Assembly (NCBI GenBank): GCA_937873455.1
Contig: CALMYG010000177.1
Location: 60,118 to 124,117 of the forward strand
DNA length: 64,000 nucleotides
Origin: an uncultured Verrucomicrobiota bacterium
GTDB lineage: Bacteria; Verrucomicrobiota; Kiritimatiellia; CAIVKH01
Reading direction: 5' to 3'
Part shown: positions 13,195 to 44,300 of the stretch, in pieces
How positions within the stretch are numbered: the first letter of the stretch is position 1
Layout of the letters: each line of letters opens with the position of its first letter
The notes under the pieces: generated by a model
Databases searched by the model: none
The model's input: only the letters and a program-made list of their open reading frames with translations
Told to the model about the DNA's origin: nothing
Translations under genes and position numbers: made by a program

Positions 13195-13276
13195 AAGGGA
13201 TGTATCACCTGAATGCGTGTGGTTGGGTACTATACCACGCCCGAGGCCGAATCACCAAACACAAACAGCATGGGGA

Positions 13277-13669
13277 TTACTTGCGAATCCACGCACGCTC
13301 TTCCTGCTTCCAGGCGGTAGCGGAACCGCCCTGGCGCAGCACAATATCCGATATCACGCGTGCGAGTAGCCAGTCGCCGCCAGACGCCCGCCACTTACCG
13401 TCGGTTCCCAACGTCCACGTTCGACCACCCGGAGTTTCGACCCAGTCCGCCCCCTGCTGGGTGTACGACGCGATTTCACGGCCGGCCATCGTTGCCCGGT
13501 ATCCCATGCCAAAGCGGTCGACGCTAATCAGCGAACCATTATCCAGCGCCACGGTGTACCCCGCGCCAACAACGCGGATTTCCTTGGCTTGCGGTGTAAA
13601 CAGAAAAGGCAGCAGGGCGTGAGCGGGAAGCGCGGCCAACAAGGCGCCAATAAAAAGAAGTAGTTTCAT
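13277..13669 (-). CDS. Small secreted hypothetical protein
   Basis: It has a signal peptide (MKLLLFIGALLAALPAHA). I recognise no domain. Confidence 0.35.
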   Translation of the reverse strand: MKLLLFIGALLAALPAHALLPFLFTPQAKEIRVVGAGYTVALDNGSLISVDRFGMGYRATMAGREIASYTQQGADWVETPGGRTWTLGTDGKWRASGGDWLLARVISDIVLRQGGSATAWKQEERAWIRK

Positions 13670-13732
13670 GAGAATTCTGGTAGAAAAAAGGCGCCGCAAA
13701 ACGGCGCCTTATGGTTGTTGTAACGTATGCGA

Positions 13733-14077
13733 TTACGAACCGCAGCCGGACTTACCCGACTTTGAGGAAGTGGCCGTGGCCGCGTCAAACTTTTCCTTCT
13801 GTGCGTCGGTCAACAGATCACGGATTTTCGACATGGACGTGGAGCAGGCATCCACGGTCATGCCTTGCGCCTTGCAATCCGCTTCGATTTTGGCGATTTC
13901 CGCCTGCTGTTCCGCGGTCAGTTCGATGCCGGAAAGGGCGCGCGTGCAAGCGCCTTCCTTATCGTAAGCGGCCTTCTTGGACTTGCCGGACATCGGGCAA
14001 CAACCGCCGCCCGCCCAAACATTGCCCGCCAACGCCGCAACACCCATAATCGCCACTACCCATATCATTTTCTTCAT
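13733..14077 (-). CDS. Periplasmic protein with an LTXXQ motif (Spy/CpxP/ZraP-like) and Cys-rich ends
   Basis: It has a signal peptide (MKKMIWVVAIMGVAALAGNVWA). There are two LTXXQ-type motifs (LTAEQQAEI, LTDAQKEKF), plus GGGCCP and C-terminal CGS cysteines. Confidence 0.45.
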   Translation of the reverse strand: MKKMIWVVAIMGVAALAGNVWAGGGCCPMSGKSKKAAYDKEGACTRALSGIELTAEQQAEIAKIEADCKAQGMTVDACSTSMSKIRDLLTDAQKEKFDAATATSSKSGKSGCGS

Positions 14078-14153
14078 TACACATTCTCCTCTTGATTTTG
14101 TGCGCCCCACCAATAGGACTTTCCACTAATGACCATTAATCATACCCCGCCGC

Positions 14154-14654
14154 TCAAATTTTTTCCACTTTTTCGTATACCTGAAAACTCATCGCCCAAG
14201 GATTTTTATCATCCGCCGGGTGCTCGAGGCACTCGACGAGCTGCCAATGGGCTGGATCAAGCGGCCATTCGGGAAACCAGACATCCCCGGTAAATGACCC
14301 GTGAATCATGGTGACATAGACACGTCGCACGACCGGCAGGAAAAGCCGATACACATCGGATCCGCCTATAACCACAAGTTCATCAACGTGTTGCACGGCG
14401 GACAGCACCGCACGCTCCCCGGTAAAACACTCAAAACCCTCGCGTCGGAATTCCGGGTTCCGGGTCAGGACCAGGTTGCGCCGCCCGGGAAGCGGCCCGC
14501 CCAGCGACAGGCAGGTTTTACGCCCCATCAGAATGGGTTTCCCCATCGTTAGCGCCTTGAAATGGCGCAAATCGGCCGGCAAGCGCCAAGGCAACCGACC
14601 CGCAGCGCCGATCAGACCATTTTGATCCAGAGCAACAATCAGGGAAACATGCAT
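14154..14654 (-). CDS. folA: Dihydrofolate reductase
   Basis: The N-terminus MHVSLIVALDQNGLIGAAGRLPWRLPADLRHFKALTMGKPILMGRKT is typical of DHFR. It is ~166 aa long. Confidence 0.85.
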   Translation of the reverse strand: MHVSLIVALDQNGLIGAAGRLPWRLPADLRHFKALTMGKPILMGRKTCLSLGGPLPGRRNLVLTRNPEFRREGFECFTGERAVLSAVQHVDELVVIGGSDVYRLFLPVVRRVYVTMIHGSFTGDVWFPEWPLDPAHWQLVECLEHPADDKNPWAMSFQVYEKVEKI

Positions 14655-14657
14655 CGG

Positions 14658-15452
14658 TTAGACCGCAATGGGCGCCTTGATCGCGGGGTGGCACTGATAA
14701 TTTTCCAAGGTAAAATCCTCGTACCGGAAGGCGAACAGATCCTTGACCTCGGGATTCAGTCGCATTTTCGGCAGCGGGAAGGGTTGGCGGCTCAGTTGCT
14801 CATGCACGGCGTCCCGGTGGTTGCTGTACACATGGGCATCGCCCAACGTATGAATGAATTCCCCCGGCTGCAAATTGCAGACCTGCGCCATCATCATGGT
14901 CAACAAGGCATACGAGGCGATGTTAAAGGGAACGCCAAGGAAAACATCCGCGCTACGCTGGTAAAGTTGACAGGATAGCCGTCCCCCGGCCACATAAAAT
15001 TGAAACAGACAATGACAAGGCGCCAAGGCCATGCGATCCAGCTCCCCCACATTCCACGCGCTGACCACCAGGCGGCGGGAATCCGGATTCGCTTTAATCT
15101 GATTCACCACCCCGGCGATTTGATCCACCGTTTTCCCGTCCCGCGCGGGCCAGGATCGCCACTGCACCCCGTAAACCGGACCCAAATCCCCCTGGGCATC
15201 CGCCCATTCATCCCAGATCGTTATCCCGTGCTCCCGCAGGTAGCCGATATTCGAATCCCCCCGCAAAAACCACAGCAATTCGTAAATGACCGATTTCAGG
15301 TGGAGCTTTTTGGTCGTCACCGCGGGAAAACCGGCCGAAAGATCAAACCGCATCTGATGGCCAAACACGCTCAACGTGCCCACGCCGGTCCGGTCGGACT
15401 TGGGCATTCCCTGGTCCATGATGGTGCGGAGTAAGTCGAGATAAACCTTCAT
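14658..15452 (-). CDS. thyA: Thymidylate synthase (ThyA type)
   Basis: MKVYLDLL...[19 protein letters not shown]...PCH... are classical ThyA motifs. At 264 aa it matches ThyA length once the start is set at the internal ATG at 15452. Confidence 0.9.
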
Positions 15453-15597
15453 GATTGCCCATTCTTGTAGGAGGAAAAGCCCGGCGGCGCAATCCGGGAA
15501 TCGCATCATTTTTACCTTTACACCACCCGGGAGTGTGCTACGTTCCCGCGTTTTGCAAGCAATGCGCACGCCACCTAACGTGCGCCGGAGAAAACGA

Positions 15598-15837
15598 ATG
15601 AAAGCTGAAATTCATCCTAAACTGAATCCTGTTTGTTTTATCGACGCCCCGACCGGTAACCGCCTGTTGACGCGCTCCACCTTGACGTCCAAAGAGCGTG
15701 AAACCATCGACGGGGTCGAATACCATGTCGTGCATTGTTCGACCTCCGGCGCTTCGCATCCCGCCTACACCGGCCAGAAGATGATGCTCGACACCGCCGG
15801 ACGCATCGACAAGTTCAACAAGCGCTACAAGAAATAA
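15598..15837 (+). CDS. rpmE: 50S ribosomal protein L31
   Basis: It reads [11 protein letters not shown]...[50 protein letters not shown], with the L31 signature (IHPK...HPFYTG...RV..F.KR). GGAG lies upstream of the ATG. Confidence 0.8.
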
Positions 15838-15892
15838 GCGCCGACCTCCCGGCAATCATTCCAAAACGCGCGAGGGCCTCCTCGCGCGTTTT

Positions 15893-16462
15893 TTACTTCC
15901 GGGCGTCGCCGGCGATCAGAGCCCATTCCGGGCCCAGGCGATGCCAAGCGATCTGCTCCGCCAAAAAATCCCGATCGAGCTTGTCGCCCGATACCGCCAG
16001 CATGCCCCGGATATCGTGGATATGTTTTTCCGACTGACCTTCCCGGTAATACTCCAGCTTTTTTAGGATCACATATTCAGGCGGGGCAATCCACAGCGTG
16101 TCGCCGCCTAAAGCAATCTGCCTCCGATGCTTTAAGCCCCATGCTTGCAGCGGTTCCGAACCGGCGAGATAGATATCGGCTTTTAATCCGGAATCATGGT
16201 GAATGATGTTAAAATGCCCTCGCCGTTGGCGTCTCGATTCGATGCCGATGACTTCGAATGGCGGACAATAAAACGTTTCGGCTGGAAACAGCGATTCGAT
16301 GCGAGACGCCATTCCCGAATCAAGCATGAGGACAAGATCGACATCATTGGTCAGCCGGGGTTCGCCATAAATCATACAGGCAACCGAACCCGCGATCATG
16401 TACGGTATCTTCCCGGCATCCAGCGGCCGGGTGAACACGAGAAATGGTTCATTGGGGGGCAT
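15893..16462 (-). CDS. Nucleotidyltransferase-fold protein, a putative toxin or antitoxin component
   Basis: MIAGSVACMIYGEPRLTNDVDLVL matches the Pol-beta-type NTase motif (G-S...D-x-D). It is ~189 aa and overlaps a small upstream ORF. Confidence 0.55.
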   Translation of the reverse strand: MPPNEPFLVFTRPLDAGKIPYMIAGSVACMIYGEPRLTNDVDLVLMLDSGMASRIESLFPAETFYCPPFEVIGIESRRQRRGHFNIIHHDSGLKADIYLAGSEPLQAWGLKHRRQIALGGDTLWIAPPEYVILKKLEYYREGQSEKHIHDIRGMLAVSGDKLDRDFLAEQIAWHRLGPEWALIAGDARK

Positions 16463-16634
16463 AAAGAAACCACCGTCGAACTTCCTGTTGGATGCGACTT
16501 TCCGGCCAGTCCGGATGCTCCTGCTTTAACGCCTGGGCCTTGACCTGTCGGGCAAACAAAATGAATTGCCCGGCAAGTTCGAGTTTTTTGGCCGGCGACA
16601 TCGCCCGGAATATCTTGATCTGTTCAGGATGCAT
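16449..16634 (-). CDS. Small helical protein upstream of the nucleotidyltransferase, a possible cognate partner
   Basis: It is a 61-aa ORF (MHPEQIKIFRAMSPAKKLELAGQFILFARQVKAQAL...) that overlaps the NTase start by 14 nt. The call rests on position only. Confidence 0.3.
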   Translation of the reverse strand: MHPEQIKIFRAMSPAKKLELAGQFILFARQVKAQALKQEHPDWPESRIQQEVRRWFLYAPQ

Positions 16635-16680
16635 CCTTGCGAGTCTGCTCCGAGGGTAAAACGAGGGCAAGCTGATTTCG

Positions 16681-16908
16681 TTAACGCGGGCGGGGATTGC
16701 AGCAGGCGCATGAGTCGGAATGATGCACCCGGGGAATTTTCGGAGGATCGCTTTTCGCCCGGGGCATTTCCAGTCCGCCGGAAATGACCCTGCGCACCGG
16801 GCGCCCGGTTTCCGGATCACGGCTCAACGCGTCCTCTTTGATGCTTTGATACAGTTCGATGACCCGCCGGGGGCCGTCGTCCGTGGTTTCATACACATAT
16901 ACGGGCAT
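16681..16908 (-). CDS. FmdB-like small protein in which the zinc-ribbon cysteines are replaced
   Basis: MPVYVYETTDDGP resembles the FmdB-family N-terminus MPxYEYxCxxCG, but it lacks the Cys pair. There is a strong RBS (GGAGTTGTGAGGAAACC) 5' of the ATG. Confidence 0.4.
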   Translation of the reverse strand: MPVYVYETTDDGPRRVIELYQSIKEDALSRDPETGRPVRRVISGGLEMPRAKSDPPKIPRVHHSDSCACCNPRPR

Positions 16909-16915
16909 GGTTTCC

Positions 16916-19900
16916 TCACAACTCCAACAGTTCTTGCACGTCTTCCCAGGACAACTTGTCCATGACCTGCTCGTCGTTTTCCAGCGTGGCGTCGATGATC
17001 GCCCGTTTGCGTTCCTGCATCGCCAACACTTTTTCCTCGATGGTGCCTTTGGTGATCAACTTGACGCTGTACACCGTACGTTTCTGCCCGATGCGGTAGG
17101 CCCGATCGGTGGCCTGGGCTTCCACGGCAGGATTCCACCAGGGGTCATAATGAATCACCATATCCGCGCCGGTAAGATTGAGGCCGGTCCCCCCGGCTTT
17201 CAGGCTGATCAGGAATACCGGAATGGCGCGGTTGGTGTTGAACGTATGCACCACGGCCATCCGGTCCTGGGTGCTGCCGTCGAGGTAACAATAGGCCGCG
17301 CCGCGCCGTTCCAATTCCTGCCGCAAAATGGTCAGCATCGAGACAAACTGACTGAACACCAATACCCGGTGACCGCCATCCATCGCCTCGTTGAGCAATT
17401 CCATGAACAGTTCCAGCTTGGCCGAAGGATTTTCCGCCGGCGGCGCCTCCTCCTTGAGCAAGGCCAGGTGGCAGCATACCTGGCGCAGACGCAGCAGGGT
17501 TTTGAGCACTTCCATACGCGAACGGTTGAATCCCTGTTCATTGACCAACTGGGTGAGGCGACGGCGGGAAGCATCCAACAATTTCCGGTAAACCGCCTGT
17601 TGATCACCCGACAGCGGACAATACGCCACCCGTTCGATTTTTGGCGGCAAGTCGGTGGCGACATCCCTCTTCAATCGCCGCAACAGAAACGGACTGAGCT
17701 TGCGCTTGAGTTTGGCCTGCGCGAACGCCGCTCCATCCTCGCCACGGGAAATCGGGAGTTCGTAGTTGCGACGGAATTTCTCGTGCCCGCCCAGATAACC
17801 CGGCATGAGAAAATCCATAATCGACCAGAAGTCCGAAACACCGTTTTCGATCGGTGTGCCGGTGAGGACAAGGCGATGGCGGGCCTGCAGGCGCTTGGCC
17901 GCCAGGGCGTTTTGCGTGGCTTTGTTTTTGATGTGCTGGGCTTCATCAAGAATCACCACGGAAAACGGTTGAGCGGCGTATTGTTCAATGTCGCGCCGTA
18001 ACAGGGCATAGGAAGTGATGATGACATCGTGTTCATGTAGCCCGGCCCATTTTTGGCGCCGGTCGCTTCCGGTGACGGTCAACACCCGGAGGTCCGGCGT
18101 AAACCGCGCCGCCTCCAAGGCCCAGTTATCGACCAGACTGGTCGGGCAAACAATCAAGGCGGGCAATTCACGGGCGGCTTCCTCCACCCGGTCCAGTTGA
18201 AGCCAGGCCAAGGTCTGCAAGGTTTTTCCAAGGCCCATTTCGTCAGCCAACACGCCGCCGTAGCCGCCCCGTTCGAGAAACCGCAGCCAGTTCAAGCCGT
18301 CGTATTGATAGGGTCGCAACGAGGCGTTCAACAAGGGGTGCGGCGCGACCGGTTCGAGGGTAATCTCACGGTTTTGCTTGCGCGCCGCCTCAAGCCATTC
18401 CGGCGTTACCTCGACATCAATGCCATCCAAGGCGTCGAGCGACGATTTGACATACGAGGCATAAATGGGAGGCAACCGGAACATACCCGGCTCGTCGCCT
18501 TCCCCGGAAGCGCAATCATCGAAGACATCCTGCATGGCCTCAATCGCCCCGGCGTCCAGCAAACAGGTGTGCGCGTCACGCTCCAGGAAGGCATCGCCCA
18601 TCCGCAAGGCGTGCTGAATTTCCTGGGCTGACCACTGCCCGCCCCGCGCGTCCTCGAATTGAAAGCCGACATCAAAACCATTCCCGCCGCGATCATGAAT
18701 TTTGACGACCGGGGCGATAAAATCAGCCTGCTCCATGAATTCGGCGACCGGGCCTTGCAGGTCCAATTTCCACCCCGCTCGCCTTAGCGCCGGCCATTCG
18801 CGTCCCAGAAAATTCATCACATCCCGGGTGCCGACGATCGGCGTCAGGTCATCCCCCACCACGCCGCGGAAGCCGGCGCGGCCGATACGTTCCAATCCTG
18901 CTTTCTCCGCGGACGGATTGCGCACGGTGAATCGAAACAGGTCTTCGGGATCCGGATGGGCGAAATGTCCCGCCGGGTCCGGCTTCGCGGCCACCATGCG
19001 CACGCCCTGGTAGTCGGCAACCAGCGTCGCGGCCAACGAAGCCGGGCTACCTCGAATCTCCAGCCGGAACCGGGGCGTTTCCGGTTCGACGGCAAACAAG
19101 TCGCGTTGCAGGTCGGTGGCGACCGCCATTTCTTTTTCGATCAGCGGTAATTCGATTTCAAAAAATCGCAATACGGCATCGCGGGCTATCCGCACCGGTC
19201 CGTTGTAAAGTTCCTGGAAGGGTCCGGGCAACACATGGTCCAGCGGCCAGAAATGTCCCGCGCCGAAGACCCAGCCCCGCTTGCCTTGAACGATATATAC
19301 CGGGCGCTCGCCTTGGCCGAGAAACGGCAACTCGGTATGCAAAACCAGAATCAGCTCCCCGGTGGTGCGGTGCAAATCCACCTGTAAGTTCGACTTCAGC
19401 GGCGTGCCGTTGACCTGGGCCTCCGCGCCATCGGGCAACTCAACGGTCCGCCCTTCGCGAACCTTCAGCACATTGGCAAAATCCTGGGCGTTGATGGTGA
19501 ATTGCTCCGGGACGGGACCCTCGAGAATGTCCTCCAACACATACATCAGGGCGTCGTCATCAGGACTTAATTTGACCGGGGTCGCTGGCGGACGGCGAAT
19601 GGAATGGCGGGCTCGCCCCTGGTCCAGCAGGGCGCGTAACGTGACTTCGCGCACCAGCGCCGATCCGTTCCATCCCGCGGACAATGCCAGAACCAACGCC
19701 ATGCGATCCAGCGATGATGCGCCAACCACGGTGCGCTGGAGATAAGCCGACTCATCCACCACCGCGACCCGGGCCGCCTTTACCGACTCCTCCTTCACCT
19801 TGACATCCCGGCGCGCCACTTCGGTTTCGTAACGTTTGGCCATTACCATGCCCAAGGCGATCACATGCGAGCAGACAATCCCCCGCTCGGTGGCATCACG

Positions 19901-20104
19901 ACAGGGGCACAAACTTTCGCACGTTCCGTCCGGCGAGACGTTGGCCCGGGTGGTCAGGGAGCGGTTGCCGAACGACAGCGTGCCTTCGAGGATCGGCGCG
20001 TCAAACCGAACCTCAAGCACCGCGCCACGCTCGTAAAGCAACTTGGCGTCGCGGTACACCGCTTCCCCGGCCCATTCCTTCAATAGTTTTTGCGTAAACT
20101 CCAT
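16916..20104 (-). CDS. SNF2-family helicase with an N-terminal SWIM zinc finger
   Basis: It has a SWIM-like CxC...CxH ([23 protein letters not shown]). The SNF2 ATPase motifs are [16 protein letters not shown] (I) and DEAQHIKN (II). Helicase-C motifs appear near the C-terminus ([23 protein letters not shown]...[11 protein letters not shown]). Confidence 0.9.
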   Translation of the reverse strand: [1062 protein letters not shown]

Positions 20105-20177: not shown

Positions 20178-21359
20178 TCACGCGGAAAGGATCGACGCCA
20201 ACCGGTCCAATACCCAGCGGTATTCCCAGGATAAACTTTCGGAAAGCCGGTTTTCGCCTACGCCTTCCGGCAGAACGGCGAACGTGTAGGTTTCAATTTC
20301 GAGATGGGGGCAACCGCCGGCGGTGATTTCCCGCCAGAACGATTCGTCCATATTCGAGCCGGTGGAATAGATGGGTGCGCTCCCCGCCCAGTGCAGCGGA
20401 ACATGAAAATGCGTGCGCGCTTCTTCCCAGTCCGGCGGATCATCGCATGCCGATATAGCGGCATCCAAATCGACAAAACGCCTCCACGCTCCCGGCGAAC
20501 CGACCACGGTTTGGTGCAGGTATACCGGCTCGATAAACTGCGCCCAGGCTTTCCGCCAGCCTGCTTCCGGGCGGACCGAAAGCGCGGCGCTGAGTTGCGT
20601 CTTGACCAGGGCGATTCCGTTTGCGCGCAAGGCGGCGATGGCCGAAGCCGGCGACTCATCAGCCAGCGCGCAATGACACGTATCCAAGCAAACCCCGACC
20701 CGACGACGGCGAACGCCTTCCTCCGAACCAGCGCCCCCGGCAAAGAATTCGCCGAGAAAGTCAATGGCATCCGCGGATGATTCCAACGCACACCACGGTT
20801 CCGGCTCGAGCCCCAAGCGTATTTCCGCGCCGGTTGACTCGGCCAGTTTATCCAGATGCCGGGCGACGTCTCCAAGATGCTGGCCCGCGCGTTGCCGAGC
20901 CGCGGCGCGATCACCGGCACGCGTATAATCCGGCGCGTACCAACCGGGAACGGTGCTGATACTCCCGACCATGCCGGAAGGCAACCATTTGCTCAAGACA
21001 TCAGCCAAGCCCATCGTGTAATCCCGGCGCCTCGGATCCGTCCAGTCGGGTCGATACACCGCGGATTTAACCGGCTGACCATGAAACGCGCCGAAAGGAA
21101 AACCATTGAGCGTGAAGACATAGAAGCCGTGGTCCCGGCACCAGACTCCAAAATCATCGGCTAACGTTCCGGATTGCAATTCCGCCAGCGCGCGCGCGCC
21201 GATGCGCAACCCCAAGCCGAAAGGTTCGGTGATCCCCAAACGGTCGCGCACCTCGGTGGCACATCCACGAACGGCCGTCCATTGGTCATGAAAACGTTCG
21301 CCGGCATGCACGTTGAGGCAATACGTCAGGTGCACGGGCGGCTGAACCGGCGCTCTCAT
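20178..21359 (-). CDS. Xylose-isomerase-like TIM-barrel protein (sugar-phosphate isomerase/epimerase family; EboE-like)
   Basis: It is ~393 aa with an Asp/Glu/His-rich TIM-barrel pattern (LGLEPEPW, CLDTCHCAL). It is ATGA-coupled to the upstream DHQS-like gene. The family assignment is by resemblance and has not been searched. Confidence 0.5.
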   Translation of the reverse strand: MRAPVQPPVHLTYCLNVHAGERFHDQWTAVRGCATEVRDRLGITEPFGLGLRIGARALAELQSGTLADDFGVWCRDHGFYVFTLNGFPFGAFHGQPVKSAVYRPDWTDPRRRDYTMGLADVLSKWLPSGMVGSISTVPGWYAPDYTRAGDRAAARQRAGQHLGDVARHLDKLAESTGAEIRLGLEPEPWCALESSADAIDFLGEFFAGGAGSEEGVRRRRVGVCLDTCHCALADESPASAIAALRANGIALVKTQLSAALSVRPEAGWRKAWAQFIEPVYLHQTVVGSPGAWRRFVDLDAAISACDDPPDWEEARTHFHVPLHWAGSAPIYSTGSNMDESFWREITAGGCPHLEIETYTFAVLPEGVGENRLSESLSWEYRWVLDRLASILSA

Positions 21360-22522
21360 AAGGCGAAAGCCCGCAAGGCCCCCAGCGCTTCCTCCATGAG
21401 CGCCTCATCAATTTCGCTGATCTCCATGCAATGGCCGACGCCCTGTGGCACGGTGATGCACAGGATACCGCCCAGATGTTCGCGAAATCGCTCCAGGCCA
21501 TTGAACAGGACCAGTCGCCCCCGGGGATCCCGCCGCTCCAGCGCTTCATGCCAGAGCGTAAACCCGGTCCGACGCAAGGCGAGGATGAGCCGGTGAGCGT
21601 CCGCCTCGGGCAACCACCCGCGACGCACGGCATACAGCGAGTCCAGCGCCACACCGATCGCCACCGCCGCGCCGTGGCCAACCTGATAACCGGTTTGCGC
21701 CTCCACGTGGTGCGCCGACCAATGCCCAAAATCCAACGGCCGCGCCCGACCCATCTCAAACGGGTCGCCACCCTCCCGGATATGGGTCAAATGCAATTCC
21801 GCGCAACGGACTACCAGGCGCTCCATCGCAGCCGCATCACGTGCCGCCAACGTGTCAGCCTCCCGGTCAAGCCAATCGAAGAAGGCCGTGTCCTTGATCA
21901 TCGCCACTTTGAACGCTTCGGCGATACCGGCGCGCCATTCGGCATCCGGAAGGCTGGCGAGAAAGTTCAAATCATTGAGAACGGCAAACGGCGGCGCAAA
22001 GGTGCCGAGAAGGTTTTTCCCGCACGGATCGTTGATGGCGGTTTTCACCCCGACCCCGCCGTCGTTCTGGGAAAGCACGGTGGTGGGCAACCGGATCATC
22101 CGGACCCCCCGATGCAGCAGCGAAGCGGCAAAACCCACCGCATCCAGAACCGCCCCGCCGCCGATCGCCATGACAAACGAATGGCGGTCCAGCGATGCCT
22201 CGGCCATCCCGCGGATCAGTTCGTCGATGCGCGCCCGATCCGACTTCAACGCCTCACCACCCCGAATCCCCCGGGGCGAGCCGACCAGATCAATGTTTGG
22301 AGCAACGGCCCGGAGGTAACATGCCAAGCGGTAGAGCAATGCCGGATGCGCCTCGGAAACCGCATCTTCCACGATCACCAACATGCGCGGATGGGGATGG
22401 CGGGCCACCTCCGGAGCAAGAATTTCCGCCAGTGCCGCATTTTCAGGGGCGAAAACGTCGCGGGTGAACACCACCGGATAGCGGTAGCGAACGGTTATAT
22501 CCTGTACGATGCGATGGGTCAT
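21356..22522 (-). CDS. 3-dehydroquinate synthase-like sugar-phosphate cyclase superfamily protein
   Basis: AIGGGAVLDAVGFAAS is the Gly-rich NAD-binding motif. ...LPTTVLSQNDGGVG... and a His-rich C-terminal metal site (HWSAHHVEAQ...HGAAVA) match DHQS-like enzymes. Confidence 0.7.
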   Translation of the reverse strand: MTHRIVQDITVRYRYPVVFTRDVFAPENAALAEILAPEVARHPHPRMLVIVEDAVSEAHPALLYRLACYLRAVAPNIDLVGSPRGIRGGEALKSDRARIDELIRGMAEASLDRHSFVMAIGGGAVLDAVGFAASLLHRGVRMIRLPTTVLSQNDGGVGVKTAINDPCGKNLLGTFAPPFAVLNDLNFLASLPDAEWRAGIAEAFKVAMIKDTAFFDWLDREADTLAARDAAAMERLVVRCAELHLTHIREGGDPFEMGRARPLDFGHWSAHHVEAQTGYQVGHGAAVAIGVALDSLYAVRRGWLPEADAHRLILALRRTGFTLWHEALERRDPRGRLVLFNGLERFREHLGGILCITVPQGVGHCMEISEIDEALMEEALGALRAFAL

Positions 22523-22660
22523 GGCATTGACGGAAAAATGTAGCTCACCCAGCGCGATCCCACAACTTCACTTTGCGACCGAGACAGGACCATTTTTTCT
22601 ATCGTGTTGTTAAGCCGTTGTGTTAGCTTTTCGTTTAACACCAAAAAACGCGGGGAAATT

Positions 22661-23839
22661 ATGAAAGTCGTCTTGATTGTTTTGGACTCCGTCGGCATCG
22701 GCCATGCGCCGGATGCCTCCGCATACGGCGACGAAGGCGCCGCCACCCTCCCTCATATCGGCGAAGCGGTCGGCGGTCTTGTCCTTCCGACCCTTCAAGC
22801 CCTTGGCCTGGGCAACATTCCCGCCCTGATCCCGGGATCTCCGGCCATACCCGGCATCGCCCCACATCGCCAACCACTCGCCCATTACGGGGTGATGATC
22901 GAAAAGTCCCAGGGCAAGGACACGGTCACCGGCCACTGGGAAATCGTGGGGCTGGAACTGATTCCCGGCTTTCACCTGTTTCCGCCGGGACCACCCTCGT
23001 TTCCTGATGAATTGGTCCGGCAGTTCGAAGAACGCACCGGGCGGGGCATTCTCGGAAACAAAGCGGCCAGCGGCACCGGGATCATCGATGCGTGCGGCGC
23101 GCAACACATGCAAGAGAAGAAATGGATCGTCTATACCAGCGCCGACAGCGTATTCCAGATCGCCGCGCACGAGGAAGTCATCCCGCTGCCCGAATTGTAC
23201 CGGGCCTGCGAAATCGCCCGGGAGCTTTGTGATGCCTACCGGGTCGGGCGGGTCATCGCACGCCCCTTCATCGGACAGCCGGGCGCATTTCAACGCACGG
23301 AAAACCGGCGCGATTACGCGTTTAAACCATCTGAACCAACCGTACTGGAAAAATTGACCGCCGCCGGTCATGCCGTGTACGCCGTCGGGAAAATCGAAGA
23401 CATTGTCGCCCACCGGGGCATCACCGAATCCAACCACACCGGCAACAACCGCGACTCGCAAAAAGCGGTCGAAGCGTTCATGAAGAAGCCGGGCGACGGC
23501 CTGATCTTCGCCAACTTCATCGATTTCGACATGATCTATGGCCACCGCCGCGACCCGCAAGGGTACGCCGACAGCTTAAAACAAACCGACGATTGGCTCG
23601 CCGGGTTTATTCCCACCTTGGCTCAAGACGACGTCCTGATCCTGACCGCTGATCACGGCAACGACCCGACCTGGAAAGGTACCGATCATACCCGGGAGAC
23701 CGTTCCCCTGCTGCTGTACCGCCCCGGACAGACCGGAATATCCCTCGGGGTTCGCAACGGTTATTACGATGTCGCCCAGTCCATCGCCACGCTTTTTGGA
23801 ATTGATCCCATGACGCGGGGCGTGTCATTTATTTCATAA
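22661..23839 (+). CDS. deoB: Phosphopentomutase
   Basis: MKVVLIVLDSVGIGHAPDA...GDEG at the N-terminus and a C-terminal ...ILTADHGNDPT... match the metalloenzyme-superfamily DeoB. The start was assigned to the ATG at 22661 with an upstream GGGGA. Confidence 0.9.
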   Translation: MKVVLIVLDSVGIGHAPDASAYGDEGAATLPHIGEAVGGLVLPTLQALGLGNIPALIPGSPAIPGIAPHRQPLAHYGVMIEKSQGKDTVTGHWEIVGLELIPGFHLFPPGPPSFPDELVRQFEERTGRGILGNKAASGTGIIDACGAQHMQEKKWIVYTSADSVFQIAAHEEVIPLPELYRACEIARELCDAYRVGRVIARPFIGQPGAFQRTENRRDYAFKPSEPTVLEKLTAAGHAVYAVGKIEDIVAHRGITESNHTGNNRDSQKAVEAFMKKPGDGLIFANFIDFDMIYGHRRDPQGYADSLKQTDDWLAGFIPTLAQDDVLILTADHGNDPTWKGTDHTRETVPLLLYRPGQTGISLGVRNGYYDVAQSIATLFGIDPMTRGVSFIS

Positions 23840-23853
23840 CGAAGGAGTCCCCT

Positions 23854-25158
23854 ATGTTGCCGCAATGGATCATCGAAAAGAAACGCGACGGGAAAGCCCT
23901 GAGCGAAGAAGAAATCCGTTTTTTTATCCGGGGTTACACCGATGGAACCCTTCCCGATTATCAAATGTCCGCCCTGGCCATGGCGATTTACTTTCAGGGC
24001 ATGACCCCGGAAGAGGTTTCCGTGCTGGTCGATGCGATGATGCGCTCCGGCGATCTCGTCGACACCTCCTCCATTCCGCTGCCCAAGGCGGACAAACATT
24101 CGACCGGCGGCATCGGCGACAAGGTCTCCCTGGTGCTGGCCCCCCTGGTCGCTTGTTTTGATGTCGCCGTTCCCATGATTTCCGGGCGCGGCCTCGGCAT
24201 CACTGGCGGCACCCTGGACAAACTGGAATCCATACCCGGCTATCAAGCCAAGATCGCGGAATCCCACTTTATTGATGTCATCAAGCAATGCGGTTGCTCC
24301 ATCATCGGCCAAACCGACCGCCTCGCCCCCGCGGACAAAAAGTTGTACGCGTTGCGGGATGTCACCGCGACGGTGCCCTCCATCCCCCTCATCACCGCCA
24401 GCATCATGTGCAAAAAAATGGCCGAAGGCATCGACGCCCTCGTTCTGGATGTCAAATGCGGCTCCGGCGCCTTTATGAAAACCCGCGATGATGCGCGCGC
24501 GCTCGCTCAAAGCATGATCAACGTCGGCAAGGCGATGAACAAAAAAGTCTCGGCGATCGTGACCGACATGAACCAACCGCTCGGCAAAACCGCCGGCAAT
24601 GCGCTTGAGGTGATCGAGTCGGTCGAAACCTTGCGCGGAGAAGGACCAGCGGATTTAGTCGATCTTACCGTCGTGTTCGCGGCGGAAATGATCGGCCTGG
24701 TCCACCCCGTGTCCGATCCGGCGGCGCTCGACCGGCAACTGCGTGAAAAGCTGGTAAACGGCGAGGCGCTCGCCCGCTTTCGCGAGATGGTACGCCTGCA
24801 ACACGGCGATGTCGGAGCCATCGACGATCTTTCCCGGCTGCCCAAAGCCCGGATTGTCCGCCCCTTCCCCGCGCCGCGCGGCGGTTTCGTGTCCAAAGTT
24901 CACGCCGAAACCATCGGCCGCGCGTGCATCGTGCTCGGTGCGGGACGTAAAAAGACCGAAGATCCGGTCGATTTCGCGGTCGGGGTATCCCACCTGGTCA
25001 AGATCGGCGACCGCATCGAAGCCGGCGCGCCGCTGCTGATGATTCACGCCAACGACGAAGCCAAGCTGAATGAGGCGGAACGTATGCTGGCCGAAGCTTT
25101 TAACATATCGGATGCGCCGGTTCCCCCGTCACCCGCCGTATTGGAGCGACTGGCGTAG
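23854..25158 (+). CDS. deoA: Thymidine/pyrimidine-nucleoside phosphorylase
   Basis: Family motifs include ...KKRDGKALSEEEI..., ...DKHSTGGIGDKVSL... and SGRGLGITGGTLDKLESIPG. It is ~434 aa. Confidence 0.9.
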   Translation: MLPQWIIEKKRDGKALSEEEIRFFIRGYTDGTLPDYQMSALAMAIYFQGMTPEEVSVLVDAMMRSGDLVDTSSIPLPKADKHSTGGIGDKVSLVLAPLVACFDVAVPMISGRGLGITGGTLDKLESIPGYQAKIAESHFIDVIKQCGCSIIGQTDRLAPADKKLYALRDVTATVPSIPLITASIMCKKMAEGIDALVLDVKCGSGAFMKTRDDARALAQSMINVGKAMNKKVSAIVTDMNQPLGKTAGNALEVIESVETLRGEGPADLVDLTVVFAAEMIGLVHPVSDPAALDRQLREKLVNGEALARFREMVRLQHGDVGAIDDLSRLPKARIVRPFPAPRGGFVSKVHAETIGRACIVLGAGRKKTEDPVDFAVGVSHLVKIGDRIEAGAPLLMIHANDEAKLNEAERMLAEAFNISDAPVPPSPAVLERLA

Positions 25159-25214: not shown

Positions 25215-26042
25215 ATGAACATGGAAATTCTGGATAAAGCCCTTGCCGTGGTGCGCGAGCGGCTCGGCAACCCGCAACCTACGGCCGGCTTGATCCTCGG
25301 CTCCGGATGGGGCGATGTACTGGAATCGTTTGAGATCGAGAAGACCCTGCCGTATGAGGAAATTCCCGGACTGGGCAAGACCGGCGTGGTCGGCCATTCC
25401 GGCCGGCTGATCCTCGCCCGGGGCGCGGGTATTTCCACCCTGATCTTCCAGGGTCGGCGTCATTATTACGAGGGCGAAGGCTGGACCCCGGTGGCGCTTC
25501 CGGTCTACGTCCTCAAACAACTGGGCGTATCCTGGGTGCTGCTCACCAACGCGGCCGGCGGCGTGCGCGCCGACCTGACCCCGGGAAGCCTGATGGTGCT
25601 GTCTGATCACGTCAACAACATGGGAACCAATCCCCTGATCGGCCCGCACCACCCGGCCTGGGGGCCGCGCTTCCCCGACCTGTCCCACGCCTACGACGCT
25701 CCCATGCGGTCCGCGCTCGCGCGGGCCGGCGCCGCCGCCGGGCTCAACGTCTCCGAAGGCGTCTACCTCGCCTCCACCGGACCCTTTTACGAAACGCCCG
25801 CGGAAATTCGCGCATACCGCACCCTCGGCGCGGACGCGGTCGGCATGTCCACCGTGCCGGAAACGTTGCTGGCCAACGCGGCCGGGTTGCGGGTCGCCGG
25901 TCTTTCCTGCATCACCAACAGCGCGGCGGGCATCAGCGCCCACCCGCTCAGCCACGAAGAAGTCACGGAAACCTCCCGGCAAACCATGCCCAAGATGAAG
26001 GCCATGATCGCCGGCTTCTGGAAGGAAATGGCCCATGCATGA
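25215..26042 (+). CDS. punA: Purine nucleoside phosphorylase (PNP/MTAP family)
   Basis: It is ~275 aa with LILGSGWG, ...HSGRLILARG... and ...GMSTVPE... motifs. Its end overlaps cdd by 8 nt. Confidence 0.85.
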   Translation: MNMEILDKALAVVRERLGNPQPTAGLILGSGWGDVLESFEIEKTLPYEEIPGLGKTGVVGHSGRLILARGAGISTLIFQGRRHYYEGEGWTPVALPVYVLKQLGVSWVLLTNAAGGVRADLTPGSLMVLSDHVNNMGTNPLIGPHHPAWGPRFPDLSHAYDAPMRSALARAGAAAGLNVSEGVYLASTGPFYETPAEIRAYRTLGADAVGMSTVPETLLANAAGLRVAGLSCITNSAAGISAHPLSHEEVTETSRQTMPKMKAMIAGFWKEMAHA

Positions 26043-26439
26043 GATGGCGGAAAAAATGATCGAAGCGGCAATTGAAGTCGCCGCCCGCGCCTACGCCCCC
26101 TACTCCAAGTTTCATGTCGGCGCAGCCTTGTTGACCCATGACGGCGAAATCATCGTCGGCTGCAATGTGGAAAACGCCTCCTACGGGCTCACCATTTGCG
26201 CTGAGCGCAATGCCATCTTCGCCGCGGTGGCCCGGAACATCCGGACCTTCCGCGCAGTGGCCATTGTCGCCGATGGCGAGGTCATGCCGTTTCCCTGCGG
26301 CGCCTGCCGCCAGGTCTTGAGCGAATTTTGCGGGCCGGCCACCCCGGTTTATGTCGCATCGATCAGCAAGCCTGGCGAAATCAAGGCGCTGACCATGGGC
26401 GAGCTGCTCCCGCATGCCTTCGCCTTCGGGGATGAGTGA
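26035..26439 (+). CDS. cdd: Cytidine deaminase
   Basis: The zinc-binding motifs CAERNA and PCGACRQ are present. It is ~134 aa, matching the homotetrameric type. Confidence 0.85.
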   Translation: MHEMAEKMIEAAIEVAARAYAPYSKFHVGAALLTHDGEIIVGCNVENASYGLTICAERNAIFAAVARNIRTFRAVAIVADGEVMPFPCGACRQVLSEFCGPATPVYVASISKPGEIKALTMGELLPHAFAFGDE

Positions 26440-27152
26440 AAACCAAGCTTAAACTCGAAATCGCTCCCCAACCCGACAACACCACCTGCGGGCCGACCTG
26501 CCTGCATGCGGTCTACCGTTATTATGGCGATGGCATTCCCTTGCCCGATGTCGTGCGGGAGGTCCCCTCGTTAAAAACCGGCGGCACGCTCGGCGTCATG
26601 CTTGCCGGCCATGCCTTGCGCCGGGGCTATCGCGCCACCATCTACTCGTACAACCTGAAGTTATTTGATCCGACCTGGTTCTCCTTGCCTTCGGAGGAAA
26701 TCTGCCGTCGCCTGAAGCGTCAGGCGCGTTTTAAAAAGCGGGAAAAACTGCAAAAGGCGACCCGCGCCTACATCGACTTCCTCGAACTGGGCGGGCGGTT
26801 AAAAACCCTGGACCTCAATGCCCGATTGCTCCGGAAATACCTCAACCGCAATATCCCGATCCTCACCGGGCTCAGCTCCACCTATCTTTACCAGACCGCC
26901 CGCGAATACGGCCCGCACGATGTCGATGACGACCTGCGCGGCCACCCCGCCGGCCATTTCGTGGTTCTGCGCGGCTACGACCGCCGGCGCAAAACCGTCT
27001 TTATCGCCGACCCGCTGGAAAGCAACCCCTACTCCGCCGACCATCAATACCAACTCGGCATCGACCGCGTCATCTGCGCCATCCTGCTCGGGATCGTCAC
27101 CGACGACGCCAACTTAATCATTTTGGAACCCCCCAAAACCACCAACCCCTAA
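26436..27152 (+). CDS. Peptidase C39-like (papain-fold) domain protein
   Basis: Q-x6-CGPTCLHAV matches the C39 Gln/Cys active-site block. A later HPAGHFVVLRGYD supplies the His. The GTG start overlaps the cdd stop (GTGA). Confidence 0.55.
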   Translation: MKTKLKLEIAPQPDNTTCGPTCLHAVYRYYGDGIPLPDVVREVPSLKTGGTLGVMLAGHALRRGYRATIYSYNLKLFDPTWFSLPSEEICRRLKRQARFKKREKLQKATRAYIDFLELGGRLKTLDLNARLLRKYLNRNIPILTGLSSTYLYQTAREYGPHDVDDDLRGHPAGHFVVLRGYDRRRKTVFIADPLESNPYSADHQYQLGIDRVICAILLGIVTDDANLIILEPPKTTNP

Positions 27153-27159
27153 CCCCGTC

Positions 27160-28629
27160 ATGTATATTCTCGTTGTTGTCGACAACCCCAAGTACTGGCC
27201 GCTCAACATTCAAAACGTCGAAGTCGTCCAGGCCCGCAAATACATCACCGAGCCGGCCTTCACCCGCATTGGAGATGCCCGGGTGTTCAACCTCTGCCGC
27301 TCCTACCGTTACCAAAGCACCGGATATTACGTGTCGTTGCTGGCCGCCGCCCGCGGCCACAAGCCGATCCCCGATGTCTCCACCATTCGCGACCTGCAAT
27401 TTCCGACCATCGTCCGGCTCGCCTCGGAAACCCTCGAAGAGGAAATGGATCGCGCGCTTGCCGACCATAAAGGCAACCGCTTCACCTTGAGCATTTATTT
27501 CGGGCGCAACCTTGCCAAGCGCTATGACCGGTTGAGCATGGAACTGTTCAACCTGTTCCGCGCTCCCTTGCTCCGCGCCGAATTCGTGAAAGAGGAAGGC
27601 AAGTGGCAACTACAGGGCATCGGCCCGATCGCCGTCAGCGAAGTACCGGAAAGCCACCACGCCTTTATTGTCATTGTCGCCTCGGACTTTTTCCGCGGAC
27701 GCCACCGCCGGCTCCGCCCGCGCGCCCAAGCCGCGTATTCAATGGCCATCCTGACCAATCCCAAGGACGAAGGCGCGCCGTCCAACCCCCGCGCCCTGGA
27801 AAAATTCATCGAAGCAGCGGAAAAAATCGGAATCGACGCCGAGCTGATCGACCGCGACGCCTACAGCCGCCTTCCCGAATACGACGCCCTGTTCATCCGT
27901 GAAACCACGTCGGTCACCAATCATACCTTCCGTTTCGCGCGCCGCGCCGAGGCGGAGGGCCTGGTCGTGATCGACGACCCGCAATCCATCCTCAAGTGCA
28001 CCAACAAGGTGTACCTTGAAGAACTGCTTACCCGGCATCGCATTCCCACCCCCAAATCCATCATTGTTCACCGCGACAACCTCGACCTCCTGCCCTATGA
28101 AATCGGGTTCCCGCTCATTCTCAAGCAACCCGACTCCTCCTACTCCGTCGGCGTCATCAAGATCGACAACAAGGAGCAACTCGAACGGGAAGCCCCGCCG
28201 ATGCTGGAGGATTCCGAACTGCTGATCGCCCAGGAATTCCTGCCCACCGAATTCGACTGGCGCATCGGGGTGATCGACGGCAAACCCTTTTATGCCTGCA
28301 AGTACTACATGGCCCGCAAGCACTGGCAGATCGTCCGCCGGGAAAAACAGACCGTGATGGAAGGCCGCGTCCAAGCCATTGCCCTGCGCAATGTGCCCGA
28401 CAAAGTCATTGATGTCGCGGTCAAGGCCTCCCGCCTGATCGGCGACGGACTCTACGGCATCGACCTCAAGCAGATCGGCAACAAGCTCTATGTGATCGAA
28501 ATCAACGACAACCCCAACCTCGATGCCGGCTTCGAAGATGCCGTCGTCAAAAACCGGCTGTACGAAACGGTCATGAAAAGTTTTCTCCGCCGGATCAAGG
28601 CGGCCAAGCAATTGCGGAAATCCCGATGA
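27160..28629 (+). CDS. RimK-family ATP-grasp ligase (alpha-L-glutamate ligase-like) with a ~200-aa N-terminal extension
   Basis: The C-terminal ~280 aa are ATP-grasp: ...FPLILKQPDSSYSVGV..., ...LIAQEFLPTEFDWRIGVIDGK..., ...GLYGIDLKQIGNKLYVIEINDNPN.... The N-terminal domain is of a pre-ATP-grasp type. Confidence 0.8.
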   Translation: MYILVVVDNPKYWPLNIQNVEVVQARKYITEPAFTRIGDARVFNLCRSYRYQSTGYYVSLLAAARGHKPIPDVSTIRDLQFPTIVRLASETLEEEMDRALADHKGNRFTLSIYFGRNLAKRYDRLSMELFNLFRAPLLRAEFVKEEGKWQLQGIGPIAVSEVPESHHAFIVIVASDFFRGRHRRLRPRAQAAYSMAILTNPKDEGAPSNPRALEKFIEAAEKIGIDAELIDRDAYSRLPEYDALFIRETTSVTNHTFRFARRAEAEGLVVIDDPQSILKCTNKVYLEELLTRHRIPTPKSIIVHRDNLDLLPYEIGFPLILKQPDSSYSVGVIKIDNKEQLEREAPPMLEDSELLIAQEFLPTEFDWRIGVIDGKPFYACKYYMARKHWQIVRREKQTVMEGRVQAIALRNVPDKVIDVAVKASRLIGDGLYGIDLKQIGNKLYVIEINDNPNLDAGFEDAVVKNRLYETVMKSFLRRIKAAKQLRKSR

Positions 28630-29855
28630 ACCGGCGGCGGCATTTGTTCGAGGCTTTTGGCGTCGAATTGGAATACATGCTCGTTCACCGGGACAGCCTG
28701 GAGATTGTTCCCGAGGTGGACCAGTTGTTCCGGGATGCCGCCGGCAGCTTCGTTTCTGATTACGAGGACGGACCGATCTCCTGGTCCAACGAATTGGTCC
28801 GCCACGTCATGGAAGTCAAAGTCAGCGAGCCTGTGGCCTCGTTCGCCGGACTGTCCGATGTCTTTCAACGCAGCCTGGATCGCATCCAGACATTGGCCGC
28901 GGCGCGCAACACCTGCCTGATGCCCACCGCCATGCACCCGTGGATGGATCCCGCCCGCGAGACCGAACTCTGGCCGCACGATTATGCCGAGGTATACCGG
29001 ACCTTTGACCGCATTTTTGACTGCCGGCGGCACGGCTGGGCCAACCTCCAATCCGTACACCTGAACCTGCCGTTTTGCGGCGACGAGGAATTCGCCCGCC
29101 TCCACGCGGCCATTCGCCTCGTACTGCCCTTGTTGCCGGGCTTGGCCGCCGCCTCCCCGATCATGGAGGGCCGCATCACCGGGCATCTCGACAGTCGGCT
29201 GGATGTCTACGTCAACAACAGCCGGGTCATTCCCCACATCACCGGTGATATCATTCCCGAACCGGTTTTCAGTCGGGATGCCTACGTGGACGCCATTCTC
29301 CAACCCATGTACACGGCCATCGCGCCCTACGACCCGGAAGGCATGCTGCAAGACGAATTTCTCAATGCGCGCGGCGCTATCGCCCGATTCGACCGCAACG
29401 CCATCGAAATCCGGCTGCTCGACGTCCAGGAATGTCCCGCCGCCGACCTCGCCATCGTGCAGGCCGTCGTCCATGCGGTGCGCCGTCAGGTGGAAGAAAC
29501 CTGGACGCCCCTCGACACCCAGAAGCAGTGGTCCTCCGCGCGCTTAAAAGCCATACTGCTCGCCCATATCCGGGATGCCGATGATACCATCATTTCCGAC
29601 CGCGAGTTTCTCGCTGCGTGGGGCTACGCCGGCGTCACCACCACGTCGCGCGACCTCTGGCGTCATATCCTCAACGACGTTTCGATCCCCGATGCCGAAC
29701 CGGCCCGCGCACTTGAGCTGATCCTCCGCGAAGGTGTGTTGGCCCGACGCATGCTCAGAAGGCTTCATGGCAGCATGGATCGCCCGGCCATCGCCGGCTT
29801 GTACCGGGAGCTCATGGAGGCGCTGCGTATCGGGCGCCCCTGGAGCCCGGCATGA
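28626..29855 (+). CDS. Carboxylate-amine ligase of the GCS2 family (YbdK-like glutamate-cysteine-ligase fold)
   Basis: MNRRRHLFEAFGVELEYMLVHRD is the hallmark GCS2 N-terminus (GxExEY). Further along it reads ...HLNLPF.... Its start overlaps the ATP-grasp stop by 4 nt. Confidence 0.8.
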   Translation: MNRRRHLFEAFGVELEYMLVHRDSLEIVPEVDQLFRDAAGSFVSDYEDGPISWSNELVRHVMEVKVSEPVASFAGLSDVFQRSLDRIQTLAAARNTCLMPTAMHPWMDPARETELWPHDYAEVYRTFDRIFDCRRHGWANLQSVHLNLPFCGDEEFARLHAAIRLVLPLLPGLAAASPIMEGRITGHLDSRLDVYVNNSRVIPHITGDIIPEPVFSRDAYVDAILQPMYTAIAPYDPEGMLQDEFLNARGAIARFDRNAIEIRLLDVQECPAADLAIVQAVVHAVRRQVEETWTPLDTQKQWSSARLKAILLAHIRDADDTIISDREFLAAWGYAGVTTTSRDLWRHILNDVSIPDAEPARALELILREGVLARRMLRRLHGSMDRPAIAGLYRELMEALRIGRPWSPA

Positions 29856-30601
29856 TACGCCCCGCTCCCGGCCTCGTATTAACCTGTGAACATGCGGGGA
29901 ACTGCGTCCCCCCCGCCTACCGCCACGTATTTCCGTCGCATCGCGCCCTGCTCACCTCGCATCGCGGGTGGGACCCCGGCATCTATCCGGTCGCCCTCGC
30001 GGTCAGCCGGGCCTTGCGTGTCCCGCTGAAGGCGCACTTTGTCACACGCTTGCTGGTCGAAACCAACCGCTCGCTGACGCATCCCGATCTCTTCTCGAAA
30101 ATAACCCGGTCGTTGCCAGCCGACGAAAAACAACGTGTCCTCGAACGGTATTACCACCCGCACCGCGCACGGGTGGTTGCCCTGCTCCAGCGGGTCATCG
30201 ACGCCGGACACCCCGCCCTCCACCTCGGATTTCACTCCTTCACGCCGGTATGGAATGGCGCTGTGCGCACGGTGGACATCGGCCTGCTCTACGATCCGGC
30301 CCGCCCCGGCGAGCGCTCCTATTGCTTCGTGCTCAAGCGCCTGCTGGAACGCACCCATCCCGAGTGGCGCATTCGCATGAACCGGCCCTACCGTGGAACC
30401 AGCGATGGCCTCACCACCGCATTACGGAAACGCTGGCCGGACCGGTCCTACCGAGGCATCGAAATCGAAATCAACCAAGCCCTGCTGGGCCGGGCCCGCG
30501 ACCGCACCCGCATCGCCCGATCGCTCGCCCAGTGCCTGATCGCCGCATCGACCGAGGGCGAAAATCAAGCCGCTTTGCCTCGGGGAAAAAGACACTACTG
30601 A
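29852..30601 (+). CDS. N-formylglutamate amidohydrolase-family protein (zinc carboxypeptidase-like fold)
   Basis: LVLTCEHAGNCVP is the FGase-family CEHA/G motif. The protein also has ...HSFTP... and is ~249 aa. It is ATGA-coupled to the GCS2 gene. Confidence 0.7.
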   Translation: MIRPAPGLVLTCEHAGNCVPPAYRHVFPSHRALLTSHRGWDPGIYPVALAVSRALRVPLKAHFVTRLLVETNRSLTHPDLFSKITRSLPADEKQRVLERYYHPHRARVVALLQRVIDAGHPALHLGFHSFTPVWNGAVRTVDIGLLYDPARPGERSYCFVLKRLLERTHPEWRIRMNRPYRGTSDGLTTALRKRWPDRSYRGIEIEINQALLGRARDRTRIARSLAQCLIAASTEGENQAALPRGKRHY

Positions 30602-43129: not shown

Positions 43130-43141
43130 GACATTATTCCC

Positions 43142-44299: not shown

Positions 44300-44300
44300 G

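Follow-up and report, generated by a model that had tools for sequence, protein, structure and literature searches.

A probable eboD-eboE sub-module of the ebo pathway beside nucleoside-catabolism genes in an uncultured Kiritimatiellia bacterium

The ebo operon was defined by Yurchenko et al. (2016, PMC5133447), who recognized EboD as a separate clade of sugar-phosphate cyclases. According to the passage of PMC12904256 that cites it, a 2024 study in ACS Chem Biol reported that EboD acts as a synthase of the inosose DEI with a hexose 6-phosphate as its substrate. A preprint of May 2026 (10.64898/2026.05.21.724671) has linked eboABCDEF to the biosynthesis of thallusin, an algal morphogen; it treats eboB, eboC, eboE and eboF as the core genes, each of which is required in Stieleria maiorica, and reports that ebo genes are scattered in the Planctomycetota. 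Here we describe a gene pair, eboD-eboE, in a stretch of 64,000 nucleotides (the window in what follows) from an uncultured member of the Verrucomicrobiota (assembly GCA_937873455.1, contig CALMYG010000177.1, positions 60,118 to 124,117 of the forward strand). In this Kiritimatiellia metagenome-assembled genome (MAG), the two translationally coupled genes very probably form a sub-module of the ebo pathway, which is widespread.

Both open reading frames (ORFs) are intact and co-oriented on the minus strand in the ORF list of the window, the base composition of which is unremarkable, and three public assemblies (GCA_035327425.1, ENA ERZ794913 and Logan SRR2107178), all of a Kiritimatiellia MAG, contain identical copies of the locus. 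An earlier note on this DNA, made from the sequence alone, had described a protein of the 3-dehydroquinate synthase (DHQS) superfamily, with a glycine-rich NAD motif and a metal site, that is coupled through an ATGA to a TIM-barrel protein, and each part of this description proved accurate. In Pfam, the cyclase ORF matches DHQ_synthase (1.1e-33) and DHQS_C (1.3e-30), the second ORF matches AP_endonuc_2, the xylose-isomerase-like TIM barrel (4.6e-08), and the stop codon of eboD overlaps the start codon of eboE (Table 1). For comparison, genomes were scanned with an alignment of EboE, which gave 80 loci that belong for the most part to the PVC superphylum, and the whole comparison covers 90 PVC-rich loci, identified below by numbers with the prefix L. 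The two genes likewise overlap, or are separated by at most 7 bp, in L004, L086, L087 and L088.

On the NCBIfam model NF004852 (cut-off 333) the cyclase scores 512 bits, whereas TIGR01357, the aroB equivalog, gives it 206 bits, less than the cut-off of 305. NF004852 is in practice the EboD model, since it gives 574 bits (and the aroB model 232 bits) to the EboD of Allomuricauda (L070), which is encoded in a canonical eboABCDEF operon where EboA, a TatD-like EboB, EboC (NF035940) and EboE were confirmed alongside it. The window cyclase is 45% identical to this operon-encoded EboD and 32% identical to Escherichia coli AroB. It retains 76 of the 78 near-invariant EboD columns, defined as those with a conservation of at least 95% across 57 EboD sequences, and 27 of the 29 columns in which EboD differs from E. 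coli AroB. In the alignment with E. coli AroB, the NAD motif GGGAVLD (residues 121-127), the triad D154/K160/N170 and the metal ligands E202, H267 and H283 are all retained. The AroB motifs DERE, GLRALLNLGHT and RDKK are replaced by DPFE, GRARPLDFGHW and RFRE, respectively, as in all EboD, and the positions of R235, R240 and N244 of E. coli AroB are occupied by F255, A260 and D264, as in canonical EboD. Going by the structure of the A. nidulans DHQS, we take the replaced positions to be those that bind the carboxylate and phosphate groups of 3-deoxy-D-arabino-heptulosonate 7-phosphate (DAHP).

In phmmer comparisons, the window cyclase scores 355-375 bits against the EboDs of four complete eboABCDEF clusters and 355-530 bits against EboDs overall, as opposed to 160 bits against E. 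coli AroB, at most 158 bits against DHQS chains in the PDB (158 for 6lk2), 112 bits against the EEVS ValA (4p53), 97 bits against DDGS (5tpr) and 89 bits against the DOIS BtrC (2d2x). In a neighbour-joining tree it falls among the EboDs of the PVC superphylum, whereas its distance from EEVS, DDGS and DOIS rests on the phmmer scores. Because of the model scores, the replacement of the AroB motifs and the phmmer scores, the window cyclase is an EboD orthologue and not a bona fide AroB.

The second protein of the pair scores 360 bits on NF035939 (TIM_EboE, an equivalog named 'metabolite traffic protein EboE'; cut-off 250) and keeps all 66 near-invariant EboE columns, which show a conservation of at least 95% across 81 homologues of EboE. 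An identical protein in NCBI carries the name 'metabolite traffic protein EboE'. A sequence search of PDB chains found no relative of EboE. The AlphaFold2 model of the window protein (pLDDT 90.7, pTM 0.91) has 79 Foldseek matches in the PDB at E<=0.001, and the best 50 of these are almost all xylose-isomerase-like TIM barrels, with Art22 isomerase, IolI (1i60), UlaE, YcjR and xylose isomerase at the top; allulose epimerase and a keto-glucal hydratase are also among the matches. YcjR is a 3-keto-glucoside epimerase and IolI is an inosose isomerase; the fold neighbours of EboE act on keto-sugars and inososes. The TIM barrel is an EboE orthologue. The label 'EboD/EboE-like' in the earlier note can accordingly be made firmer: the two proteins pass NF004852 and NF035939, the cyclase has the EboD-specific motifs, and both are best described as orthologues. 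As a gene family, eboD-eboE is ordinary, and EboE is already so named in the public record.

In the reading that we prefer, and to which we assign a probability of about 0.8, the two genes are eboD and eboE of the ebo pathway, EboD forms DEI, and EboE then acts on this inosose. EboD would be an NAD+- and metal-dependent sugar-phosphate cyclase that makes a six-carbon cyclitol. Published work on its orthologues suggests mannose 6-phosphate as the compound that is cyclised to DEI, which would proceed by transient oxidation, elimination of phosphate, reduction and intramolecular aldol closure, and synthesis of DEI by the window protein itself is predicted from its sequence. EboE would be a metal-dependent TIM barrel of the xylose-isomerase fold that most likely uses the DEI inosose as its substrate and may isomerise, epimerise or dehydrate it, judging from the fold analogy with IolI, YcjR and hydratases and from the prevalent adjacency of the two genes. 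The product could then enter the synthesis of a prenylated quinoline via EboB, EboC and EboF encoded elsewhere in the genome, or it could be an autonomous product. We lean towards a location of eboB, eboC and eboF elsewhere in the genome, because scattered ebo genes are common in the PVC superphylum. The earlier note had regarded the product as unpredictable. For the first step this is now out of date, as an orthologous EboD is reported to be a DEI synthase in the relevant passage of PMC12904256 and 76 of 78 columns are kept; the proposal of a new cyclitol or carbasugar is left without support, the active-site columns being those of canonical EboD.

Several observations weigh against this reading. 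Hidden Markov models (HMMs) of EboA to EboF, built from the 80 genome loci and run on all window ORFs of at least 70 amino acids, match only EboD (585 bits) and EboE (501 bits), and neither these locus-derived HMMs nor Pfam detected EboA, EboB, EboC or EboF in the 64-kb window. UbiA, TatD, Phosphodiest and DeoC domains were not found by Pfam in the 56 window ORFs scanned. As the earlier note had stated, the pair stands alone, with no prenyltransferase and no TatD protein nearby, and this holds over at least 20 kb to one side and 41 kb to the other. A search with the nearest EboF from the Kiritimatiellae revealed none, among its best 120 matches, on the long contigs (918, 324, 271, 172, 161, 136, 125 and 90 kb) that belong to the clade of the window. 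This hints at a lack of EboF but does not prove it, and the pair may thus function in the absence of the other ebo genes. A metagenome scan for EboC, in which no contig of the relevant samples appears among the 600 matches listed, is uninformative. In addition, all assayed EboD enzymes come from outside the clade of the window, the reaction of EboE is not established even in model organisms, and the operon with ureide genes that is seen in relatives (see below) is not predicted by the ebo/thallusin model.

The earlier note had also allowed that the TIM barrel might be a generic sugar isomerase, unlinked to the cyclase in other genomes. The two genes are in fact adjacent in most of the 90 loci, and the barrel belongs to the EboE equivalog. 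Complete clusters among the 80 loci are ordered B-C-F-D-E or B-E-C-D-F, and other architectures include F-D-E trios, E alone and B-E. The D-E pair alone, with at least 5 kb of flanking DNA, is present in L013, L018, L025 and L050 (the complete genome CP120722.1), and L004 is a fifth case. Within the Kiritimatiellae, complete clusters are found in L040 and L173, and L005 contains an F-D pair without E. EboA was not found by the ORF HMM in most PVC loci; in L173 an unassigned gene for 222 amino acids occupies the eboA position. D-E is a recurrent, mobile two-gene module in a setting where ebo genes are often dispersed. No ebo architectures of Kiritimatiellia or Verrucomicrobiota were found in the supplement of 10.64898/2026.05.21.724671.

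Table 1. Features of the eboD-eboE locus and of the deo and ureide genes in the window
Feature	Coordinates	Strand	Basis or detail
eboE (xylose-isomerase-like TIM barrel, 393 aa)	20178..21359	-	NF035939, conserved columns, AlphaFold2 fold
ATGA overlap, eboD TGA and eboE ATG	21356..21359	-	minus strand reads GCCTTATGAGAGCG
eboD (sugar-phosphate cyclase, 388 aa)	21356..22522	-	NF004852, EboD motifs, phmmer
eboD/deoB divergent intergenic region, 138 bp	22523..22660	.	sequence read
Putative sigma-70-type eboD promoter, TTGTGG-17 nt-TACATT, ends 14 nt before ATG	22537..22565	-	by eye
deoB	22661-23839	+	NCBIfam equivalog above cut-off
Thymidine/pyrimidine-nucleoside phosphorylase	23854-25158	+	NCBIfam equivalog above cut-off
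Purine-nucleoside phosphorylase	25215-26042	+	NCBIfam equivalog above cut-off
Cytidine deaminase (cdd)	26035-26439	+	NCBIfam equivalog above cut-off
HIU hydrolase	55298-55651	-	Pfam
DUF6986	55656-57116	-	Pfam
OHCU decarboxylase	57098-57649	-	Pfam
Allantoicase	57656-58648	-	Pfam
Allantoinase-like amidohydrolase	58670-60037	-	Pfam

Another feature of the comparison is the link between eboD-eboE and the genes of ureide breakdown. We identified a co-oriented block, eboD-eboE-allantoinase-allantoicase-OHCU decarboxylase-DUF6986-HIU hydrolase, in eight loci: L004, L018 (Verrucomicrobiota), L025 (Kiritimatiellia), L086, L087, L088, L091 and L092. The closest relatives of the window pair share 57-64% identity in EboD, and L018 and L025 form a second sub-branch. 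At the junction with the allantoinase gene, eboE overlaps or abuts its neighbour in L004, L088 and L092 and is separated from it by 45-136 bp in L086, L087 and L091; in L018 a bPH_2 gene is inserted, and L025 has roughly 400 bp between the two genes. The block has different flanks in the L004-type loci, L091, L092, L018 and L025. In the window, the five ureide genes lie 35 kb from the pair, which is not at their head, and are followed on the opposite strand by a PF00756 esterase, exactly as in L091. The pair also occurs without the block, in L090 with an RND pump next to it and in L013 and L050 with unrelated neighbours. In L090 it is an RND efflux system (periplasmic adaptor, RND pump and outer-membrane factor; 12533-18052) that replaces the ureide block downstream of eboD-eboE.

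Neither the ureide cluster of the window nor those of the eight loci contains a recognisable urate oxidase. DUF6986, a protein of about 480 amino acids with faint similarity to the malate-synthase TIM barrel, is always part of the cluster and was not mentioned in the literature searched; the same literature contains no mention of eboE together with allantoin. A changed chemistry of the ureide-linked enzymes was considered and rejected. Group-specific substitutions number none in EboE and one (G to A) in EboD, and in neighbour-joining trees the ureide-linked proteins interleave with those of F-D-E and C-D-E-F loci, so their chemistry is expected to be canonical. The association of D-E with ureide genes is a new observation that is not found in the ebo literature searched. 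That the pair is welded to the ureide pathway in one lineage constitutes the main comparative interest of this locus; a functional link would offer, in addition to thallusin and scytonemin, a second physiological setting in which to place the reaction of EboE and the role of DEI.

On the side of eboD, the pair is flanked by divergently oriented genes for nucleoside catabolism that start with deoB. The best-supported deoB start is the ATG at 22661: the NCBIfam alignment runs from residue 2, the ATG is preceded by GGGGA, and the protein called by NCBI has 392 amino acids. An alternative start in some gene callers, the GTG at 22604, leaves 81 bp. The earlier note was right about a divergent region shared with deoB, although its length is 138 bp and not the 149 bp given there. 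The putative promoter in this region (Table 1) may serve eboD; in L004, L086, L087 and L088, TTGAGT and a box resembling TATAAT, about 17 nucleotides apart, lie equally close to the start of eboD. Scans for consensus promoters and terminators gave no excess over shuffled controls, and the sole plus-strand promoter match (22635-22662) is uninformative because it overlaps the deoB start codon. Rfam had no match at E<=1 in the intergenic region and revealed no riboswitch or other RNA in the window or in four related loci. A search for an operator shared by the upstream regions of eboD and the allantoinase gene in the window and of eboD in relatives recovered only a common promoter layout.

The linkage of deo genes to eboDE is limited to the window and its identical twin contigs. 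The deoB, thymidine phosphorylase, purine-nucleoside phosphorylase and cdd products of the window have no phmmer matches in L004-L085, and none of the four appears in the Pfam annotation of L086-L092 and L173. In two relatives, a bacterial microcompartment locus that encodes shell proteins, EutN, an aldehyde dehydrogenase and an RpiB-DeoC fusion is found some 6.5-7.7 kb upstream of the pair (L087, 921-3500; L090, 960-3536); deoxyribose-phosphate aldolase is therefore encoded outside deo operons in this group. In the window, cdd is followed by tightly packed genes (26436-30601, plus strand) for a C39-like peptidase, a RimK-like ATP-grasp protein with an RLAN N-domain, a GCS2 carboxylate-amine ligase and an FGase-family amidohydrolase, which resemble a peptide/amide-ligase modification cassette appended to the deo genes.

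Other readings of the pair have to be weighed against its assignment to the ebo pathway. Both NCBI and JGI label the cyclase '3-dehydroquinate synthase', and its 32% identity to E. coli AroB and its conserved NAD and metal motifs are in line with the view that it is the real AroB of this organism. We regard this as highly improbable and as largely refuted already: the score on the aroB equivalog is below the cut-off; phenylalanine, alanine and aspartate stand in place of R235, R240 and N244, as in all EboD; the gene is co-transcribed with eboE; and EboD is a separate clade for which the DHQS annotation is unfounded (Yurchenko et al. 2016, PMC5133447). The public label should be corrected, which will help the reconstruction of the shikimate pathway in PVC genomes. 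NF004852 (PRK06203) is itself an equivalog named '3-dehydroquinate synthase' yet captures EboD, a misannotation that has spread over genomes of PVC bacteria, Bacteroidota and Proteobacteria. Very unlikely, too, is the proposal of the earlier note that an orphan pair makes a novel cyclitol or carbasugar, or else disposes of the pentose phosphates of DeoB since deoC is missing. The pair does diverge from deoB with the 138-bp region in common, and no DeoC domain is present among the window ORFs scanned by Pfam. However, the deo linkage is missing from every other locus examined, so that the disposal of DeoB products has no comparative support, and the active-site columns are those of canonical EboD, a reported user of hexose 6-phosphate (cited passage of PMC12904256). 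The absence of deoC from the operon is no proof of its absence from the genome; relatives encode DeoC elsewhere, in the RpiB-DeoC fusion, and the gene may simply be unlinked. Conservation of the neighbourhood, which the note had suggested as a check, applies to the pairing of D and E, which recurs, and not to the deo genes.

A link to nucleosides and purines, which the earlier note had raised in a DeoB-specific form that does not stand, gains from the conserved D-E-ureide block in relatives when it is put more loosely. It is conceivable, though unlikely, that eboD-eboE is independent of eboB, eboC and eboF in this Kiritimatiellia/Verrucomicrobiota lineage and part of purine and nucleoside catabolism, a DEI-derived small molecule being needed for, or co-regulated with, the degradation of urate to glyoxylate. 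Such a role would agree with a seven-gene block that recurs in eight loci with tight junctions and differing flanks, with the move of the window pair to a place beside a nucleoside-catabolism operon while the ureide genes, 35 kb off, are syntenic with those of L091, with the lack of EboF on the long contigs of the clade among the best 120 matches, and with the absence of an eboE-allantoin pairing from the literature searched. Yet D and E have no group-specific substitutions bar the single glycine-to-alanine change in EboD, the trees interleave, the ureide link is dispensable in L090, L013 and L050, no chemistry joins a cyclitol to ureide breakdown, and common descent may account in part for an adjacency conserved in a single superphylum. 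A bolder version, which we consider more doubtful still, is that eboD-eboE came away from the prenyltransferase-based ebo pathway in this lineage and was taken over for purine catabolism. The pair would then head a urate-to-glyoxylate operon, in the window it would have moved beside deoB-deoA-PNP-cdd, and its DEI-derived product, for example a redox-active polyhydroxybenzene, a reductone or a signal, would be required for the scavenging of purine nitrogen in these largely anaerobic bacteria.

Some further neighbours deserve mention. On the same strand as eboE and 73 bp downstream of it lies a gene for an SNF2-family helicase of 1062 amino acids (16916-20104, minus strand), the best NCBIfam matches of which (SCO1167/SCO6262 helicase and pilus-regulating Snf2 helicase) both fall well short of the respective cut-offs. 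The terminator scan detected no clear terminator in the 73-bp gap, and read-through is therefore possible. In L004, L086, L088 and L090, which are among the closest relatives, conserved genes for a HAD hydrolase, an FNR-like oxidoreductase (FAD_binding_6/NAD_binding_1) and an ApbE flavin transferase are located about 3 kb upstream of eboD on the opposite strand; in L087 only the first two of these are present, and the trio is absent beside eboD in the window. Lipase maturation factors are a family best known from eukaryotes. The window encodes a bacterial homologue (47408-48868, minus strand; LMF1 5.6e-58, LMF1_C 4.5e-51), and another homologue is found near eboE in L015. At 42308-46193 (minus strand), a gene for alpha-acetolactate decarboxylase adjoins those for the beta and biotinyl alpha subunits of a Na+-translocating oxaloacetate decarboxylase, genes that fit an anaerobic, fermentative lifestyle.

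Taken as eboD and eboE of the ebo pathway, the pair can be set beside the systems described so far. With AroB, EEVS, DDGS and DOIS the window cyclase shares the fold and the NAD+/metal core (E202, H267, H283 and the GGG motif), but it differs from them in scores of at most 160 bits, as against 355-530 bits to EboDs, and in falling short of the aroB cut-off. It is like published EboD in its model match, its 45% identity, its 76 of 78 conserved columns, its motif changes relative to DHQS and its place directly upstream of eboE; it is unlike it in that the assayed enzymes come from other phyla and that the window gene lies outside any eboA-F cluster. Planctomycetota such as Stieleria maiorica (10.64898/2026.05.21.724671) belong to the same PVC superphylum as the window and have similarly dispersed ebo genes, although in strains of this type all four core genes are present and required, whereas the window DNA shows D and E alone. 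Similarly, the window EboE resembles that of the thallusin/ebo pathway (10.64898/2026.05.21.724671; PMC6282210) in its equivalog match, in 66 of 66 columns and in its TIM-barrel fold class, and differs in having no eboB, eboC or eboF within 64 kb. Finally, IolI (1i60), YcjR, UlaE and xylose isomerase match the fold of EboE with a Foldseek probability of 1.00 and a TM score of about 0.6-0.7 on the target. They are only 10-17% identical to EboE, which is longer by about 100 residues, but as metal-dependent enzymes of keto-sugars and inososes they suggest how EboE could act on DEI.

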